31,671 nt of DNA from Clostridia bacterium (GTDB taxonomy: Bacteria; Bacillota; Clostridia; Saccharofermentanales; UBA5734): positions 1-31,671 of the forward strand of contig JAGOFF010000001.1 of NCBI GenBank assembly GCA_017997315.1, read 5' to 3'. A program made the position numbers and the translations under genes. Positions within the stretch are counted from its first letter, which is position 1. Each line of letters starts with the position of its first letter. This document shows positions 3,440 through 10,860 of the stretch, piece after piece. The notes beneath the pieces were generated by a model. That model was given only the letters and a program-made list of their open reading frames with translations, searched no databases and was not told where the DNA came from.

Positions 3440-4213
3440 TCACCCGGCCAGGAAATCCACCAGCAGCCGGATGAAGAGCAGGATCAGCACGCCGACCAGC
3501 ACGGTCCGGATGAAGCCCGCGCCGCGGCGGATGGCCATGCCCGAGCCGATCCAGTTGCCCGCGACACTGCATAATGCCGCGGGAACCGCCGCCCAGAGCA
3601 CGATTTTCGCGTTCGCCGCAAACAGGGTCACGGCGGCGATATTGGACGCCAGGTTCACGATCTTGGCCGTACCGCCCGCCTTGGCGTAATCGAATCCCAG
3701 CACTCCGGTAAAGGCGAGGATCAGGAAGGTTCCGGTGCCCGGACCGAAGAATCCGTCATAGGCCCCGATCAGAAGGCAGATCCCGGCTGTGACGGCATAC
3801 AGGCGTTTCCCGGATGGGAAACGCCTGTTCGCGTTGTCCGCATCCCCTTTCCGCCGCAGCAGGGTGGTGGCCGCGACGACGGGCAGAAGCACCAGGAGCA
3901 GCATGCGCAGAAAACGGTCGCTCACCGCCAGCGCCAGCCGTGCGCCGGCGAAGGAGCCGGCCAGCGCGGCCGCGCCGCCCGCCAGCCCTGCACGGATGTC
4001 CATGGACCGGCTGCGCGCGTACCGCCAGGTGGCGACGAGCGTGCCGACGGAAGAAGACATCTTGTTCGACCCGAACGCCACGTGCGCCGGAAATCCGCAT
4101 AGCAGATAGGCCGGCAGGGACACCAGTCCGCCGCCGCCCGCGATGGAGTCGATGAATCCCGCGAGAAAGACCAAAGGACACAGGATCGGCAAGGTCTGCA
4201 GGGGATCCGGCAT
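3440..4213 (-). CDS. TauE/SafE (TSUP) family sulfite/anion exporter
   Basis: Two repeats, AGFIDSIAGGGGL..LP and IGAYDGFFGPGTGTF, with about 8 hydrophobic segments. A TATAAT lies on the minus strand at 4253-4258. Confidence 0.9.
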   Translation of the reverse strand: MPDPLQTLPILCPLVFLAGFIDSIAGGGGLVSLPAYLLCGFPAHVAFGSNKMSSSVGTLVATWRYARSRSMDIRAGLAGGAAALAGSFAGARLALAVSDRFLRMLLLVLLPVVAATTLLRRKGDADNANRRFPSGKRLYAVTAGICLLIGAYDGFFGPGTGTFLILAFTGVLGFDYAKAGGTAKIVNLASNIAAVTLFAANAKIVLWAAVPAALCSVAGNWIGSGMAIRRGAGFIRTVLVGVLILLFIRLLVDFLAG

Positions 4214-4397
4214 GGTCGGCCTCCGGTGTTCGGGCTGGGTATCCTGCGACCTATTATATCGTTGCCGCGGCAGGCCGGACAGGCAGGGCGGAAACAGGAC
4301 TTTTGTCGTTCGACTGCCGGAAACCGGCGGCTTCGGCGGCGGTAGAATCCATCCTGTCCGGCGGATGCCGGAACAAAACGGAGGAGGATGGAAGGGA

Positions 4398-5036
4398 GTG
4401 CCGGATGGGAAAGGGAAGAACGGGAGGCGGCGCGTCCGACGGGCTTGTCTGCTGGCGGCCGCGCTGATCGCTGCGGCAGGGCTGATCGCCGCATTGCCGG
4501 AGACCGGTCGTGAGGGAGACGCACTCGGGACGTCGGGAACGCTCCGGTCGGTCGAACTGGATCCGGGGGCGGGAGAGGCGATCGACGGCGGATACAGGAG
4601 GGAGTCGGACCGGGCCCTCCTGGCCGCACTGCAGGAGAAGCAGATGATGGTGACCGATACCGTGTCATCCTATGCCGCTTTCTCCAACGGTGCGGCCGGT
4701 ACCCTGGGCGACTGGGTGGTGGAGAACGTGCCCGGCAACCAGGTGATCCAGCAGGCGGAGATCCATCTGGACGGGCGGTGCGTCGCCCGATCGGCCGCCA
4801 TGCATCCCGGACAGCACGTGCGTCAGGTCCGGCTGCTGGAAGCGGTCCCGGAGGGGAGCCACGTAGCGGTCGCTTATCTGAACTATTTTACGGAAGACAC
4901 GGAGTCGTACATCAGCAAAACGGGATTCCGGATCCGGATCTCCGTCCGTGCCGGGGAAGCGGAAGAAACGGACGGGATCGACTCCCCCGGAGAATCCCGG
5001 AATGGTATGGAGGAGAGAAAGAATGGCAAGAACTAG
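4398..5036 (+). CDS. Hypothetical protein with an N-terminal membrane anchor and a predicted extracellular beta-rich domain
   Basis: An in-frame GTG at 4398 follows GGAGGAGG (4380-4387); the alternative start is ATG 4365. A basic N-terminus (KGKNGRRRVRR) and one hydrophobic helix precede a soluble domain. The gene overlaps the next by 14 nt. Confidence 0.7.
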   Translation: MPDGKGKNGRRRVRRACLLAAALIAAAGLIAALPETGREGDALGTSGTLRSVELDPGAGEAIDGGYRRESDRALLAALQEKQMMVTDTVSSYAAFSNGAAGTLGDWVVENVPGNQVIQQAEIHLDGRCVARSAAMHPGQHVRQVRLLEAVPEGSHVAVAYLNYFTEDTESYISKTGFRIRISVRAGEAEETDGIDSPGESRNGMEERKNGKN

Positions 5037-5634
5037 ACCGATCCGTCTCATCCTGGCCGCAGCGGCGGCACTGCTGGTCGCAACGGCCGGCGCGGCACCT
5101 GCGCAGGCGGCCGACATCGCATTCGGGGAGGGGAGCATCGAGCGGGTCATTCCGGTCACCGGGAGCATCGGAACGCTGACCCTGAGCGTCACGCATCCGG
5201 TCGCCGCGGCCTGGACGATCGATCCGAACAACGAGAATCCGTTTACCGCTCCGGACATCGAGATCACCAACCTCAGCAAGGTCCGTATCCGGGTGGGGAT
5301 CCAGTCGCTGGCCGCAGCGGCCGCTCCGGTCCTGGACGATCCGGACGAAGTGCTGCTGGAGGACGTGGGAGCGGCGGACAAGCCGTGGGACCTGCTGAAC
5401 GCCGAGGATTCCATGCGCTTCATCGCACTCGGCGTGTTCGCCCGGCAGCAGACCGGTTGGGATTCCGGCGCACATGAGTCCGTCGCGTATGCTGCGGACA
5501 TCGACGGAACGCCCATGGGGACCCTGTCCGCGGGCGGATCCGGCTCGATCGGTTTCTCGGCGTGCCACGGATTGGCGGTCGCCCGCCGGTTTGTCGCCGC
5601 CCACACCCTGGTCCTCACCTTTTCGGTGGATTGA
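5023..5634 (+). CDS. Secreted hypothetical protein, paralogue A of a tandem pair
   Basis: ATG 5023 follows GGAGGAG. Sec-type signal MARTRPIRLILAAAAALLVATAGAAPAQA ends in an AxA site. There is no LPxTG or C-terminal transmembrane segment. Clear similarity to 5647-6252. Confidence 0.8.
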   Translation: MARTRPIRLILAAAAALLVATAGAAPAQAADIAFGEGSIERVIPVTGSIGTLTLSVTHPVAAAWTIDPNNENPFTAPDIEITNLSKVRIRVGIQSLAAAAAPVLDDPDEVLLEDVGAADKPWDLLNAEDSMRFIALGVFARQQTGWDSGAHESVAYAADIDGTPMGTLSAGGSGSIGFSACHGLAVARRFVAAHTLVLTFSVD

Positions 5635-5646
5635 AGCGAAAGGAGG

Positions 5647-6252
5647 ATGACAAGCATGATACGTTCCATAGCAATCCGGTTGATTCCCGTGCTGGCCGCG
5701 GCGGCGGCCATCCTGACGGCAGGTTCGGCCGTGCGCGCCGAATCGTTCTCCGGCGCCGGCAGTATCGACTCTTCCACGGTTACGGTCCGGGGCGCCGCGA
5801 CGCCCCTGGTGTTTTCCGTGATGCATCCGACCTCGGCATCCTGGGGAATCGATGCCGACCTGGAAGTCCCCTTTGTTTCTCCCGTGCTGTCCATCCGCAA
5901 CAACTCAACCTGTCCGATCGATGTCAGCCTGACCGGATTCGTCCGGAATCCGTCAAGCACGCTGCCCTTCACCGACGTCATGCCCGACGCGTTCCCCGAT
6001 TGGAGCGCCATCAACCGCGAGCAGACGTTGACGCAGCTGGCTCTGGGCATACGGGTTCATCCGGAGGAGAGCGACTGGCTGTCCGGATATGCGGCAGCCA
6101 CGCGCTGGGCCGCTGAAACCGGATCGTTCCTGTTCGGAACCCTGCCGGGCGGCGGAACCGGCAAGTTTGACCTGGAGGCGCGGCACGGGCTTGCCTTCGA
6201 TGCGGAGTATACCGCGCAGCACGATCTGACGTTCCTGTTCACACTGGACTGA
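5647..6252 (+). CDS. Secreted hypothetical protein, paralogue B of a tandem pair
   Basis: ATG follows AAGGAGG, 12 nt after the previous stop. Signal peptide ...VLAAAAAILTAGSAVRA. Shares SVxHP, WxID, PFxxP, ALG, GTLxxGGxG, HGLA and HxLxxxFxxD with paralogue A. Confidence 0.8.
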   Translation: MTSMIRSIAIRLIPVLAAAAAILTAGSAVRAESFSGAGSIDSSTVTVRGAATPLVFSVMHPTSASWGIDADLEVPFVSPVLSIRNNSTCPIDVSLTGFVRNPSSTLPFTDVMPDAFPDWSAINREQTLTQLALGIRVHPEESDWLSGYAAATRWAAETGSFLFGTLPGGGTGKFDLEARHGLAFDAEYTAQHDLTFLFTLD

Positions 6253-6337
6253 CGGGATTTCGCACCCCCGCGGAATCGCCGCGGGGGCACACCCGCGGAA
6301 CCCTTGCGGCTACCGCCCGCGCACACGGGACATCGCC

Positions 6338-6366
6338 TTGACAGAGGAAAACCCGTGGGATAGAAT
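6338..6366 (+). promoter_or_regulatory. SigA/sigma70 promoter of tRNA-Ala
   Basis: TTGACA (6338-6343), a 17-nt spacer, then TAGAAT (6361-6366), 10 nt upstream of the tRNA. Confidence 0.9.
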
Positions 6367-6376
6367 AAGCGGGCTT

Positions 6377-6452
6377 GGGGCTATAGCGCAGCTGGGAGCG
6401 CACAACACTGGCAGTGTTGGGGTCACGGGTTCGAGTCCCGTTAGCTCCACCA
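6377..6452 (+). tRNA. tRNA-Ala (anticodon GGC), CCA encoded
   Basis: 76-nt cloverleaf: acceptor GGGGCTA/TAGCTCC with the G3:U70 Ala identity pair, D arm GCGC/GCGC, anticodon arm CAACA-CT GGC AG-TGTTG, T arm ACGGG-TTCGAGT-CCCGT and 3' ACCA. Confidence 0.98.
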
Positions 6453-6535: not shown

Positions 6536-7618
6536 CTATTCCGGCAGGGTCTCCAGCCTCCGCAGGATATCCTGGAACTCCTTGTCGTCCGACAGCGAGA
6601 TGAAAGCCGGATTGTCCGACACCATCGAGCGGATGCACCGGTTCAAACGGCTTCTCGACCACGGTGGCGATCCGATGTCCAGACCATGGAAAAAGGGGCT
6701 GTCCGACAACGCCTGAGGATCGCCGACTCTGAATGCGCAGTCGGAGAACATGCGAAGGGCATCCAGTGTTTCACGCGGTTTTCCCTGTTCCGCCCGGCAT
6801 TCGGCCATCATCAGGTACGGACTCAGATCCTGCCCGTAAAGCAGGTCCCTGTCGAACATTCCCGACAGCCGCAGGTTCAGTTTGATCATCCTCAAGGCCT
6901 GCGTATAATCCCGCTTCCGTCGTGCGACCTTGGCGAGCGTCGTCAATGCGGCATCACAGGCGCCGATGTGGGTCACCAGCATGCGGAGCGCCGCGATCCG
7001 CGCTTTCTCGTGCTCGTCCATCGCGTAGTAGACGGATACCCTCATCTGTTCCGGATCGACCACCGAGGCGGGAATTTCATTCAGCGCTTCCAGCGCCTCC
7101 GTGTATCGGGCCTGGCGCAGGAACAGGACACATAAACCTTGCCATGCCGCGTCCCGGATCCAGGCGGCATCGCTTCGAACCGCTTCCCGCAGAAGGCCAG
7201 CCGCGCGTTCCGTCAGATCGTCGGCGTCCGTTTCGGTTCCGACGCAGGAGAGGTGCGTCATCAGCACGTTTGCCAGCCGCAGCATCAGGAGCGGGTTGCC
7301 GGGCTGCTCCCGGACGGCATCCTCGCACAGCCGGACCGCGCTTTCGTACCCGCGCGACTCAAACAGGGCCGAGCAGCGGCTGCATATCTCCATCACCCTC
7401 TCCTCGGACAGGATGGCATCGCAGCCCAGCAATCCATCCACCGAGCACCCGAGGTGCCGGGCGATGGGTGACAACAGCGTGATATCGGGGTACGCACGGC
7501 CGGTTTCCCATTTTGACACCGCGGCGACCGATACCCCGAGAACGTCGGCGAGCCGGCTTTGCGTCATGCCGCGCGATTTCCGCTTCTGCCGGATGATATC
7601 TCCGATCGGATACTCCAT
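6536..7618 (-). CDS. XRE-family HTH transcriptional regulator with helical TPR-like C-terminal region
   Basis: The real start is MEYPIGDIIRQKRKSRGMTQSRLADVLGVSVAAVSKWETGRAYPDITLLSPIARHLGCSVDGLL, a classic HTH_3 motif. About 290 aa of amphipathic helices follow. The ORF-track extension to 8347 is antisense to trxA. Confidence 0.88.
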   Translation of the reverse strand: MEYPIGDIIRQKRKSRGMTQSRLADVLGVSVAAVSKWETGRAYPDITLLSPIARHLGCSVDGLLGCDAILSEERVMEICSRCSALFESRGYESAVRLCEDAVREQPGNPLLMLRLANVLMTHLSCVGTETDADDLTERAAGLLREAVRSDAAWIRDAAWQGLCVLFLRQARYTEALEALNEIPASVVDPEQMRVSVYYAMDEHEKARIAALRMLVTHIGACDAALTTLAKVARRKRDYTQALRMIKLNLRLSGMFDRDLLYGQDLSPYLMMAECRAEQGKPRETLDALRMFSDCAFRVGDPQALSDSPFFHGLDIGSPPWSRSRLNRCIRSMVSDNPAFISLSDDKEFQDILRRLETLPE

Positions 7619-7715
7619 GAACCTGCCCCGCTTTCCGCCGGAAGTCTTTCCTGTCATCAGGTATAGACTTTTCGCTGCCAGTCCGCAATGGAAGGCTACT
7701 TGAGAAAACCACCGC

Positions 7716-8216: not shown

Positions 8217-8251
8217 CCGGACGGATTGCTCAGCGATGCGTCCGGTTTTTT
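8217..8251 (+). terminator. Intrinsic terminator after trxA
   Basis: CCGGACG-G-ATTGC-TCA-GCGAT-G-CGTCCGG followed by TTTTTT. Confidence 0.75.
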
Positions 8252-8255
8252 CTGG

Positions 8256-8270
8256 ATATAATCATAATCA
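8256..8270 (+). promoter_or_regulatory. -10 box (TATAAT 8257-8262) overlapped by a Fur/PerR-box-like 7-1-7 motif
   Basis: ATATAAT-C-ATAATCA matches 11/14 positions of both the Bacillus Fur box (TGATAATnATTATCA) and the PerR box (TTATAATnATTATAA). No clear -35 box. Confidence 0.45.
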
Positions 8271-8304
8271 TAGCGGATCAATCGAAGCAAAGGATGGAAG
8301 CCGT

Positions 8305-10860
8305 ATGTTGAAAGTATTGATCGTGGGAGGCGTCGCGGGCGGCGCAAGCGCGGCTGCCCGGCTCCGGAGACTGGACGAGAACGCGGAGATCATTCTGTTC
8401 GAGCGGGGGGAGCACATCTCCTATGCGAACTGCGGACTGCCGTACTATGTCGGCGACGTCATCCGTGAGCAGGACCGGCTCCTGGTGCAGACCCCGGAAG
8501 CCATGCGCGCCCGGTTCCGGATCGATGTACGGGTGAACAGCGAGGTGACAGCGCTGGACCGCACCGGGAAAAAGGTGCATGTCCGCGAGACGAAGACCGG
8601 CCTTGAATACGATGAGAGTTATGACAAGGTGATCCTGTCGCCCGGCGCGCGTCCGTTTGTGCCGCGTATCGAAGGCCGTGACCTGCCCGGGGTGTTTACG
8701 TTGCGGAACGTCCCCGATACCCTCCGGATCCGTGAATTCGTCGACAGCGGGAAAGTCCGCCGCGCCGTGGTGGTCGGAGGCGGATTCATCGGCATCGAAA
8801 TGGCCGAAAATCTGCGTGAGAGAGGCATCCCGGTCACGCTGGTGGAAGCGCTCGACCAGGTCATGGCTCCGTTCGACTACGAGATGGCGGCCGTCCTGCA
8901 GTCCAGCCTCAAGCAGAACGGCATCGCGCTGTCGCTCGGATCCGCGATCACCGGCATCCGTTCCGCGGGTAACTCCCTCGAGGTCCTGCTCGACAAGGGC
9001 GGACCGGTTCCGGCGGACATGGTAGTCCTGAGCATCGGTGTCCGTCCGGAAAGCGAGCTGGCGCGCGATGCGGGCCTGGAAATCGGCGAGCGCGGCGGCA
9101 TCCGTGTCGACCGGCATCAGAGGACATCCGATCCGGACATCTATGCGGTCGGGGATGCGATCGAAACCTATGACATGATCTCCGGCAAAAACACGCTGCT
9201 GCCGCTTGCCGGCCCCGCCAACCGGCAGGGACGTACCGCCGCGGACAACATCGCCGGCCGGGATGTCCCGTTCGAAGGCGTCATCGGTTCATCCATCATC
9301 AAAGTGTTTGATCTGGCGGCCGCGACCACCGGAAGCAACGAGAAAAACCTGAAGCGCAACGGAATACCGTACGAGAAGACATACATCCATCCGCTCTCCC
9401 ACGCCGGGTACTACCCCGGCGGGACGCAGATGACGCTCAAGCTTCTTTTTTCACCGGAGACCCGCAAGGTTCTGGGTGCTCAGGCGGTCGGCCCGGACGG
9501 GGTGGACAAGCGCATCGACGTGATCGCGACCGCGATCAAGCTGGGTGCGACCGTGGATCAGCTTCAGAATCTGGAACTCGCATACGCCCCGCCGTTCTCC
9601 GCCGCCAAGGATCCGGTCAATATGGCCGGATTCACCGCGGTGAACATCCTCGACGGGTTGACCCGGGTCCTGCACTGGCACGATGTCGACGGGCTCGACC
9701 GCAACCGGTTCGTCATCCTTGATGTCCGGACGCCCGAGGAATTCGAGCTCGGGCATATCGAGGGGGCGCAGAACCTCCCGGTGGACGACCTTCGCGACCG
9801 GCTGGCGGACGTACCGCACGACAAGGAGATCCTGATCTATTGCCGGGTCGGCCTGCGCGGCTACGTCGCGGAACGCATCCTGAGGCAGAACGGCTTCGAC
9901 GCGGTCTACAACCTGAGCGGGGGTTTTCTGCTGTACAGCAGCGTGAAAGAAGCCGAGACCGCTCCGGTCAACGATTCCGGTGTTCCAGCCTGCGGAACCG
10001 ATGCGGTCCTGCCCTCCCCGGTGAACTGCCAGGGGTACCCGGATCATACCGGTGACGGTTCCGAGTCGTTCACCGCTGCCGCCCGGGAATCCGCGGCGCC
10101 CCGCACGGCTTCGCGGCCGGTCGCCGTCAAGTCTGTGGATGCGTCCGGACTGCAGTGCCCCGGTCCGATCCTGAAGCTCAGCGAAGGGCTGAAAACGCTT
10201 ACTCCCGGCGACATCCTGGAAATCGCGGCGACCGATCCCGCGTTCGGAAAAGACGCGGAGGCATGGTGCATGCGCACCGGGAACAATCTGCTCTGGTCGG
10301 AGAAGGAAGGCCGGACCGAGCGATACTGGATCCGCAAGGGATTCATCACCGCCGCCCCCACGGCAGGTGCCGCGGCATCGCCGCGGAACGCACACGATAA
10401 AACCATCGTCGTGTTCAGCGAGGATATGGACAAGGCGCTCGCCGCGTTCATCATCGCCAACGGAGCCGCGGCCATGGGACGCAGGGTGACGCTGTTCTTC
10501 ACGTTCTGGGGGTTGAACATTCTGCGCAAAGAACGCCGCGTACGCGTCCGCAAGGATTTCGTGTCCGGGATGTTCGGGAGGATGATGCCCCGCGGACCGG
10601 CCCGGTTGGGCCTGTCGAAAATGAACATGGCCGGGATCGGAAGCCGGATGATGCGCAGGGTCATGAAGAACAAGAACATCAGCTCCCTGAACGAGCTGAT
10701 CCGGTCGGCGATCGACAGCGGCGTACGCCTGGTGGCCTGCACGATGTCCATGGACGTGATGGGAATCCGCAAGGAAGAGCTGATCGACGGCATCGAGATC
10801 GGCGGTGTGGTCAGCATGCTGAGCACCGCGGAGGAAGGGGATGCGCTCCTGTTCATCTGA
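8305..10860 (+). CDS. CoA-disulfide/persulfide reductase fused to rhodanese, TusA/SirA and DsrE/F domains
   Basis: CoADR part: IVGGVAGGASAAARLRR, SYANCGLPY, GGGFIGIE, ELAYAPPF. Rhodanese: LDVRTPEEF..GHI and YCRVGLRG. TusA: DASGLQCPGP. DsrE: FSEDMDKALAAFIIANGAAAMGRRVTLFFTFWGL and VACTMSMD. Start moved to MLKVLIV. Confidence 0.92.
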   Translation: MLKVLIVGGVAGGASAAARLRRLDENAEIILFERGEHISYANCGLPYYVGDVIREQDRLLVQTPEAMRARFRIDVRVNSEVTALDRTGKKVHVRETKTGLEYDESYDKVILSPGARPFVPRIEGRDLPGVFTLRNVPDTLRIREFVDSGKVRRAVVVGGGFIGIEMAENLRERGIPVTLVEALDQVMAPFDYEMAAVLQSSLKQNGIALSLGSAITGIRSAGNSLEVLLDKGGPVPADMVVLSIGVRPESELARDAGLEIGERGGIRVDRHQRTSDPDIYAVGDAIETYDMISGKNTLLPLAGPANRQGRTAADNIAGRDVPFEGVIGSSIIKVFDLAAATTGSNEKNLKRNGIPYEKTYIHPLSHAGYYPGGTQMTLKLLFSPETRKVLGAQAVGPDGVDKRIDVIATAIKLGATVDQLQNLELAYAPPFSAAKDPVNMAGFTAVNILDGLTRVLHWHDVDGLDRNRFVILDVRTPEEFELGHIEGAQNLPVDDLRDRLADVPHDKEILIYCRVGLRGYVAERILRQNGFDAVYNLSGGFLLYSSVKEAETAPVNDSGVPACGTDAVLPSPVNCQGYPDHTGDGSESFTAAARESAAPRTASRPVAVKSVDASGLQCPGPILKLSEGLKTLTPGDILEIAATDPAFGKDAEAWCMRTGNNLLWSEKEGRTERYWIRKGFITAAPTAGAAASPRNAHDKTIVVFSEDMDKALAAFIIANGAAAMGRRVTLFFTFWGLNILRKERRVRVRKDFVSGMFGRMMPRGPARLGLSKMNMAGIGSRMMRRVMKNKNISSLNELIRSAIDSGVRLVACTMSMDVMGIRKEELIDGIEIGGVVSMLSTAEEGDALLFI

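Follow-up and report, generated by a model that had tools for sequence, protein, structure and literature searches.

A three-gene operon of a Clostridia bacterium as a candidate usher-less, sortase-independent chaperone-pilin-type surface assembly

According to two preprints of 2026, donor-strand pili with membrane-anchored chaperones exist outside Gram-negative bacteria (bioRxiv 10.64898/2026.10.17.759780; PMC13278184). The WxL (Elr/Csc) pilus of Enterococcus faecalis and other Lactobacillales (Sleutel et al., bioRxiv 10.64898/2026.10.17.759780; Csc clusters, PMC1534035; PMC10599100) is made of small pilins and large tip adhesins, the WxL domain being C-terminal in 2,867 of 2,871; the small WxL proteins polymerise, and in ElrE-ElrD a strand of the chaperone lies parallel to the pilin's C-terminal strand. 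This system was reported to be essentially confined to Bacilli, with 2 of 343 Clostridia genera carrying it, and the Elr screen was built on three Pfam models (bioRxiv 10.64898/2026.10.17.759780). In the Pam pilus of Candidate Phyla Radiation (CPR) bacteria, which have no outer membrane, donor-strand exchange is driven by membrane-anchored chaperones without an usher, the operon also codes for tip and terminator subunits, and two-domain pilins donate a linker strand (PMC13278184). Here we analysed a three-gene operon, g1-g2-g3, in a stretch of 31,671 nucleotides (nt) from contig JAGOFF010000001.1 of a Clostridia bacterium. This whole stretch, positions 1-31,671, is called the window, and all coordinates refer to it unless a locus label is given. 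Its closest known counterpart is the WxL/Elr pilus, followed by the Pam pilus.

We put at about even the chance that g1-g2-g3 encodes an usher-less, sortase-independent surface assembly of chaperone-pilin type, composed of a chaperone or anchor and a fibre. The evidence comes from the build of the three proteins, a controlled prediction of the g1-g3 complex, the use of the subunit domain in large surface proteins and the conserved order of the genes.

The three products and the predicted g1-g3 contact

The gene g1 (4398..5036, plus strand) encodes the membrane-anchored partner and candidate chaperone or anchor, a protein of 212 amino acids (aa). It starts at GTG 4398, as does the 212-aa database gene call, and its Shine-Dalgarno sequence, GGAGGAGG (4380..4387, plus strand), lies 10 nt ahead. 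The secreted subunit g2 (5023..5634, plus strand; 203 aa) begins at ATG 5023 inside the end of g1, with GAGGAG 7 nt ahead of it; another in-frame ATG, an alternative start, is found at 5002. Its secreted paralogue g3 (5656..6252, plus strand) has 198 aa, or 201 aa if started at 5647. The GGAGG at 5642-5646 touches ATG 5647, leaving no spacer, and stands 9 nt ahead of ATG 5656; because of this 9-nt spacer and of the 198-aa product in the database, 5656 is the more likely start. Of the three tightly linked, co-directional genes set out in the first-pass annotation of this DNA, the genes themselves and the 14-nt overlap of g1 and g2 held, and the 12-nt gap between g2 and g3 did not, the gap from start 5656 being 21 nt.

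The products of g2 and g3 align by BLASTP with 34% identity over 205 columns (E 9e-26), bearing out a paralogy that had been put at about 30% by hand, and the motifs then listed are all present in this alignment, most of them being invariant across orthologues. Read directly, both sequences carry cleavable Sec-type signals with AxA sites (g2, residues 1-29, AQA↓A; g3, VRA↓E), have no LPxTG, no lipobox and no C-terminal hydrophobic segment, as had been claimed, and end at their last beta-strand. Each mature chain has nothing but a conserved N-terminal extension, about 20 residues long, and a beta-sandwich of roughly 150 residues reaching the last residue, and the mature N termini read G-x-G-x-[IV] followed by [IV]-[PT]-[IV]-x-G. 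In g3 the extension comprises residues 32-52 (G-x-G-x-I ... V-x-V-x-G; 5740..5802, plus strand). G38 and G49 in it are invariant across orthologues; it is unplaced in the monomer model and lies outside the interface with g1, and we regard it as a candidate exchangeable strand. The g3 sandwich spans residues 53-201 (5803..6249, plus strand), with its first strand at 53-62 and its C-terminal strand at 188-200 (6208-6246), and these two strands are the predicted docking edge for g1. The AlphaFold2 (AF2) monomer of g3 has a predicted local distance difference test (pLDDT) score of 78.5 overall, residues 28-45 being under 50. A strain variant of g2, on a wastewater metagenome contig, has an in-frame 3-nt insertion (GAG) behind 5568 that keeps the frame.

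In the AF2 model of g1, residues 8-32 form a transmembrane helix, after which come a disordered linker, a short helix and, at 86-183, a beta-sandwich of eight strands, in agreement with the single N-terminal membrane helix and beta-rich domain noted before; the monomer models of g1 and g3 were built from 8-9 sequences each. The hydrophobic core of the helix, residues 16-32 (4443..4493, plus strand), is preceded by an Arg/Lys-rich stretch, and no conserved AxA or lipobox follows it in an alignment of 30 homologues, which have in common the N-terminal anchor, a conserved segment behind it and the sandwich. We infer that the helix is an uncleaved signal-anchor with N-in/C-out orientation. The extracellular sandwich, residues 84-183 (4647..4946, plus strand), is modelled with pLDDT 82-95 and contains the two strands predicted to contact the subunit, residues 84-91 (4647-4670) and 172-180 (4911-4937), both on the plus strand, which hold the invariant residues V85, T86, S90, G176 and I179.

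Three peculiarities of the g1 sequence should be mentioned. The letters LPETG occur at residues 33-37 (4494-4508), directly after the membrane helix. As a sorting signal they were rejected, being unconserved in all 29 homologues, wrongly positioned and not followed by a sorting-signal tail, and their occurrence is probably due to chance. The segment D-P-x-A-G-E-A-x-x-G-x-Y (residues 55-66), suspected of being a donor strand of g1, fell outside the predicted g1-g3 interface. Finally, only in this genome does g1 end in an extra charged tail, about 28 residues long and with many E, D, G and K (4947-5033), whose coding sequence overlaps the ribosome-binding site and start codon of g2; the homologues stop right behind the last beta-strand.

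For prediction of the g1-g3 complex, mature g3 was entered twice and the g1 ectodomain once, each with the alignment of its family, and three controls were run. The complex scored 0.75, the best of the three controls 0.00. Among solved complexes, 58 of 80 attained the score mark, as against 2 of 110 mismatched pairs, counts that are only rough here because own alignments were used and the prediction held three chains. The runs agreed in at least 80% of contacts, and the pLDDT of the partner was at least 80. Residues 195-200 of the C-terminal strand of g3 pair in register and in parallel with residues 174-178 of the last strand of g1, and residues 55-62 of g3 pair antiparallel with residues 90 down to 84 of g1, thus joining the first strand of each protein. 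These four contact strands hold invariant residues of both families and are the most conserved parts of both. Since no similar complex has been solved for the g1 and g3 sequences, it is unlikely that the test was passed from model memory. The controlled prediction, whose score expresses the confidence of a model and is no measurement, supports but does not demonstrate binding of g1 to g3 at the first and last strands of the subunit, in line with the pairing of a membrane-anchored partner with a subunit proposed in the annotation.

A profile search of 1.84 billion representatives (cut-off, E of 1e-3 or better) returned 505 clusters with the subunit domain. Architecture was counted on the best 156 of these, which comprise 75 small secreted domain-only proteins and 81 large proteins. 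In 78 of the 81 large proteins the domain ends at most 10 residues from the C terminus, and in one it is N-terminal; the payloads are BspA-type leucine-rich repeats (LRR), RCC1, GLUG, Ig-like and discoidin (F5/8C) domains. The analogy with WxL proteins drawn earlier thus extends to a domain placed at the extreme C terminus of large adhesin-like proteins. Small domain-only proteins and large proteins with the C-terminal domain are also encoded together, an RCC1 protein directly following g3 in sister genomes.

None of the known families of such proteins could be recognised. Pfam, NCBIfam and PDB sequence searches gave no family for g1 and no match for the g2/g3 domain, so that none of the three genes can be given a family name, as had been stated, and no confident match to a non-polymerising family was found. 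A Pfam scan of 49 members of the subunit family gave scattered chance matches only. Neither g2 nor g3 matched the WxL domain (PF13731) at E of 10 or better, nor did the 49 members at E of 1 or better, and no match to it was found in the own genome. When the family profile was compared by hhalign with eight true WxL proteins from Bacillota_A genomes, only the signal peptides aligned (Prob 12%), and with signal peptides trimmed the value was 0.2%. Peptidase_M73 (PF12389) likewise had no match in g2, g3 or the 49 members at E of 1 or better. The product of g1 did not match DUF916 (PF06030) or DUF3324 (PF11797), neither of which exceeded the cut-off in the own genome, and had no match to PapD_N (PF00345); the operon contains no usher-sized gene and no fourth small LPxTG gene. 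There is no SipW signal peptidase among the operon neighbours and no sortase in the window, the sole sortase gene found being on another contig, so the claim that neither is adjacent was confirmed.

Fold comparisons were less specific. With the g3 model, Foldseek against AFDB found one WxL protein (E 1.7e-5), the C-terminal domains of 'internalin' and BspA proteins and uncharacterised proteins, with camelysin weaker (E 1.5e-3); the Atlas search gave a WxL score of 0.86, to be taken as a lead only, and camelysin at TM 0.51. In the PDB, nothing reached the Foldseek cut-off (E of 0.001 or better). By VIA-align, the best PDB fold match of g3 was a donor-strand protein, the archaeal bundling pilin 7ueg (Z 6.4, root-mean-square deviation 4.8, 124 aligned), followed by CsuE, FimG, FimA, the PapG pilin domain and CS20 at Z 4.6-6.0, amid unrelated folds scoring equally. 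These matches to donor-strand pilins are within noise and exclude no family. For g1, the best VIA-align match had Z 7.2, in a range the tool calls common, and the fold is that of a generic Ig/FN3/macroglobulin sandwich. As judged from sequence, the three genes stand outside the WxL, TasA and chaperone-usher families.

Conservation and genomic setting

The order g1-g2-g3 is kept in all four congeneric (sister-species) genomes searched, and orthologues in the same order were also found on three metagenome contigs, one of them without g2. The three reading frames are thus more than chance open reading frames. A set of 11 loci, comprising the window, the four congeneric genomes, the three metagenome contigs and three relatives at about 40% identity, showed a subunit gene directly downstream of g1 in 11 of 11 and a g3-type subunit in every locus. 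A membrane-anchored partner with two paralogous secreted subunits is thus a conserved module, as had been suggested, its synteny holding across congeners and the homologues examined. Because one contig carries only g1 and a g3-type gene, g1 and g3 make up the minimal core.

Within the genus, the locus reads TauE (minus strand), g1, g2, g3, an optional gene and tRNA-Ala. The optional gene, present in two congeners and one NCBI metagenome contig, encodes an RCC1 beta-propeller protein with the g2/g3 domain as its C terminus and lies between g3 and tRNA-Ala(GGC) (L017 5177-6958; L018 5332-7077, minus strand; L003 2437-3891). It is missing from one congener and from the window, where about 120 nt (6253-6376) take its place, and is thus a presence/absence polymorphism. 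In the own genome, which is 93.7% complete, only the two small domain copies of g2 and g3 and no large domain protein were found, so this genome has the "tipless" form. In congener G002, the g2 orthologue (L018 7706-8342, minus strand) is read in two overlapping frames (profile positions 14-126 and 138-197), being either a frameshifted gene or an assembly error.

A search with the g1 alignment returned the four congeners and nothing else. Screening 36 further genomes of the family and order for the subunit domain gave no match, as did 400 genomes sampled across the phylum, which does not establish absence, and tblastn of the subunit against PLSDB plasmids gave no match. Nine metagenome entries from wastewater, sludge, digesters and sediment contained near-identical DNA, with at least half of the sampled words, and the source sample may be among them. 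The three g1-like and subunit pairs at about 40% identity have another setting: L025 (8001-9198) lies between two serine recombinases and TnpV, and L026 (8001-9212) and L027 (8001-9145) lie in conjugation gene sets with PrgI, a TraG/VirD4-type coupling protein, TrbL, DUF87 and NlpC/P60. The L026 subunit gene is split over three frames, perhaps as a pseudogene or through an error of long-read assembly. One large LRR member of the subunit family stands among plasmid-type partition and toxin-antitoxin genes. A divergent cluster, L050 (465-6600), has five consecutive subunit-domain genes (one small, three large of about 510-550 aa, one small); its large proteins have no Pfam payload and its subunits lack the G-x-G-x-[IV] N-terminal motif. 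The L050 contig also carries Thy1, RNase H and HTH_17 genes.

In the window, the operon region has a G+C content of 62-68%. Two G+C-rich hairpins follow g3 (6256..6298, plus strand; -27.2 kcal/mol, z -2.5) and are the probable operon end; no T-tract lies behind them, and because the T run is lacking they are not in the terminator scan list. The conserved tRNA-Ala(GGC) gene (6377..6452, plus strand), with a promoter-like site of its own at 6338-6366, forms the right-hand boundary, and the TauE-family gene (3440-4213, minus strand) is the divergent left neighbour of g1. The operon neighbours are TauE, a LUD-domain protein, an esterase, tRNA-Ala and an XRE-TPR regulator, the latter, an XRE-type helix-turn-helix and TPR protein, being encoded convergently just past the tRNA gene (6536-7650, minus strand). 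Farther on, 8236-10860 encodes an 874-aa fusion of pyridine-nucleotide disulfide oxidoreductase, rhodanese, TusA and DsrE-like domains, adjoined by a thioredoxin gene, which suggests an enzyme of sulfur-trafficking or persulfide-reductase type. No riboswitch or other Rfam element was found upstream of the operon, and no consensus sigma-70 promoter ahead of g1. As for RNA, one true RNA run yielded just one contig, 158 nt long, that is identical to 5205-5360 within g2, and two runs of doubtful kind gave 150-nt g2 pieces; these matches are insufficient to claim transcription of the operon, and uncovered parts carry no meaning.

Fibre assembly and competing explanations

In the assembly that we propose, g2 and g3 would be exported via Sec, and g1 would be retained in the membrane through its N-terminal signal-anchor, exposing one Ig-like domain. 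The first and last strands of this domain would cap the open hydrophobic edge of the subunit formed by its first and C-terminal strands. They might then be swapped for the N-terminal extension of the next subunit, yielding a short non-covalent fibre or stalk whose base would be held at the membrane by g1. In sister species, such a fibre would be tipped by the RCC1-propeller adhesin with the same C-terminal domain, and in other lineages by LRR, GLUG or Ig payloads. Polymerisation is favoured by the payload-free domain-only paralogues kept in every species of the genus, by the extension, which is conserved yet unplaced in the monomer model, and, by analogy, by the polymerisation of the small WxL proteins. 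Fibre growth would have a direction, and adhesion or aggregation in digester biofilms could be its role; these points, like polymerisation itself, we infer.

Several observations count against this assembly. The complex score covers the g1-g3 interface only and bears neither way on polymerisation, and the g3 monomer model rests on eight sequences (pLDDT 78.5). None of the PDB matches of g3 reaches Z 8, GOLD domains and viral jelly rolls being interspersed among them, and the g1 fold has no specific likeness to PapD-type or DUF916 chaperones (best Z 7.2). From the Elr consensus, [S/T]-x-[G/A]-x-[V/I]-x-F, the extension deviates, having no conserved Phe at the last pocket. Its motif also occurs inside large proteins, between payload and domain, for which reason the extension may represent the domain's own first strands, folding in cis; the Elr tip adhesin (ElrA) has no donor strand, whereas the large proteins here keep the extension motif. 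Finally, no g1-like gene accompanies the five domain genes of L050, and some members of the subunit family stand alone, one small member among them, so that the subunit domain can work without g1.

Part of this evidence fits a static display without a fibre, in which g1 would be a cohesin-like membrane receptor holding proteins with a dockerin-like C-terminal domain by beta-sheet augmentation, g2 and g3 being small cargo, spacers or competitors. The contact between g1 and the domain is the sole interaction with computational support, many surface proteins with nothing else in common bear the domain as a C-terminal tag, large proteins keep the extension motif as they would part of a complete domain, and the g1 fold is generic. 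We nevertheless consider static display unlikely, if still the strongest competitor. It is hard to see what the payload-free paralogues, of which each species of the genus keeps two, would serve for as cargo, and in the own genome, where no large domain protein was found, the receptor would have nothing else to display. Moreover, the g1 linker of about 50 residues seems short for presenting cargo beyond a Gram-positive wall, and the small proteins of the analogous WxL system have been shown to polymerise.

A matrix fibre resembling that of TasA and TapA would keep polymerisation and dispense with a folding chaperone: g2 and g3 would be pre-folded, self-complemented and self-polymerising, and g1 would be a TapA-like nucleator or anchor. 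Camelysin/TasA-family models are indeed among the structural neighbours of g3 in AFDB and Atlas, the archaeal bundling pilin 7ueg, its best PDB neighbour, is TasA-like, and the operon is tipless in an organism of sludge and digester communities, a matrix role for tipless operons having been proposed in the Elr preprint (bioRxiv 10.64898/2026.10.17.759780). The absence of Peptidase_M73 from all 49 family members (0/49 at E of 1 or better) and of an adjacent SipW-type peptidase, the ordinary AxA appearance of the Sec signals and the large domain-bearing adhesins, which are no TasA feature, make this explanation improbable.

That the g1-subunit pair is cargo of conjugative elements, a mating-pair adhesin or surface-exclusion factor of which the genus copy would be a domesticated remnant, is suggested by the recombinase/TnpV (L025) and conjugation (L026, L027) contexts of the relatives at about 40% identity and by the large LRR member amid plasmid-type partition and toxin-antitoxin genes, but we consider it very improbable, since the genus operon is chromosomal, lies between TauE and tRNA-Ala with housekeeping genes around it in all species searched and has no recombinase or transfer gene nearby in the window, and since this account concerns role and not mechanism and is compatible with the fibre model.

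If the chaperone-pilin-type assembly is correct, the known range of chaperone-built fibres would be widened, and about 500 clusters of unannotated secreted proteins would receive names and a testable function. Many LRR, RCC1 and GLUG surface proteins from gut and anaerobic-digester Clostridia would likewise gain a name and a testable function for their C-terminal domain, and g1 with g3 would constitute a minimal two-gene system for chaperone-guided strand exchange.

Comparison with described assembly systems

In contrast to sortase-assembled pili, g2 and g3 have no C-terminal LPxTG and the locus has no pilus sortase. With the TasA-TapA-SipW system of Bacillus subtilis and the archaeal bundling pili (AbpA, 7ueg), the locus would have in common beta-sandwich fibre subunits, a donated N-terminal strand and an accessory anchor (TapA). 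It differs from that system by the lack of a Peptidase_M73 signature and of SipW, and TasA has no family of large adhesins bearing the TasA domain C-terminally.

The predicted double-strand geometry of g1 and g3 follows the same logic as that of FGL chaperone-usher systems (Caf1M-Caf1, PDB 1P5U). Zavialov et al. reportedly described in 2003 that the A1 and G1 edge strands of Caf1M pair with the A and F edge strands of Caf1, G1 being parallel to F. In contrast to these systems, an usher, a periplasm, a PapD fold and a match to PF00345 are all missing here; g1 is single-domain and membrane-tethered, and the fold matches to chaperone-usher pilins are weak (Z 5-6).

The Pam pilus shares the usher-less model with membrane-anchored chaperones. 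However, PamC and PamD, both PapD-like, comprise two domains and a C-terminal helix, the phylum is different, and we expect no relation in sequence.

The WxL/Elr pilus shows the most resemblances. Both systems have small, Sec-exported, domain-only subunits, here in two paralogous copies, and place the same domain at the extreme C terminus of large LRR and other adhesins encoded alongside; both have a membrane-anchored partner, predicted in our case to lie in parallel beside the subunit's C-terminal strand; and both occur in Bacillota hosts in tipless and tipped operon forms. There are also differences. The subunits have no sequence or profile similarity to PF13731, and g1 lacks PF06030/PF11797 and has one domain instead of two. 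The anchor helix of g1 is N-terminal whereas that of the Elr chaperone is C-terminal, giving the opposite topology, and g1 is predicted to dock two strands, its first and last, where the Elr chaperone uses one hairpin strand. Here there is no LPxTG terminator and no sortase link, both being optional in the published system; the extension motif departs from the Elr donor-strand consensus and is retained in large proteins; and the host belongs to Clostridia. The claim that Elr systems are nearly confined to Bacilli therefore does not cover the g2/g3 family, which is undetectable by the Pfam-based Elr screen.

Taken together, these comparisons suggest that the same assembly logic exists in Clostridia under families invisible to Pfam-based screens, with a simpler and differently oriented helper. 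It is conceivable, though less likely than not, that the locus represents a third, independently evolved usher-less chaperone-pilin lineage of single-membrane bacteria beside WxL/Elr and Pam, formed by two unnamed families, with a minimal, N-anchored chaperone of one Ig domain that would donate two edge strands. This lineage would be patchy in Clostridia and partly located on conjugative elements, where it might provide an adhesion or mating fibre with exchangeable LRR, RCC1 and GLUG tips.

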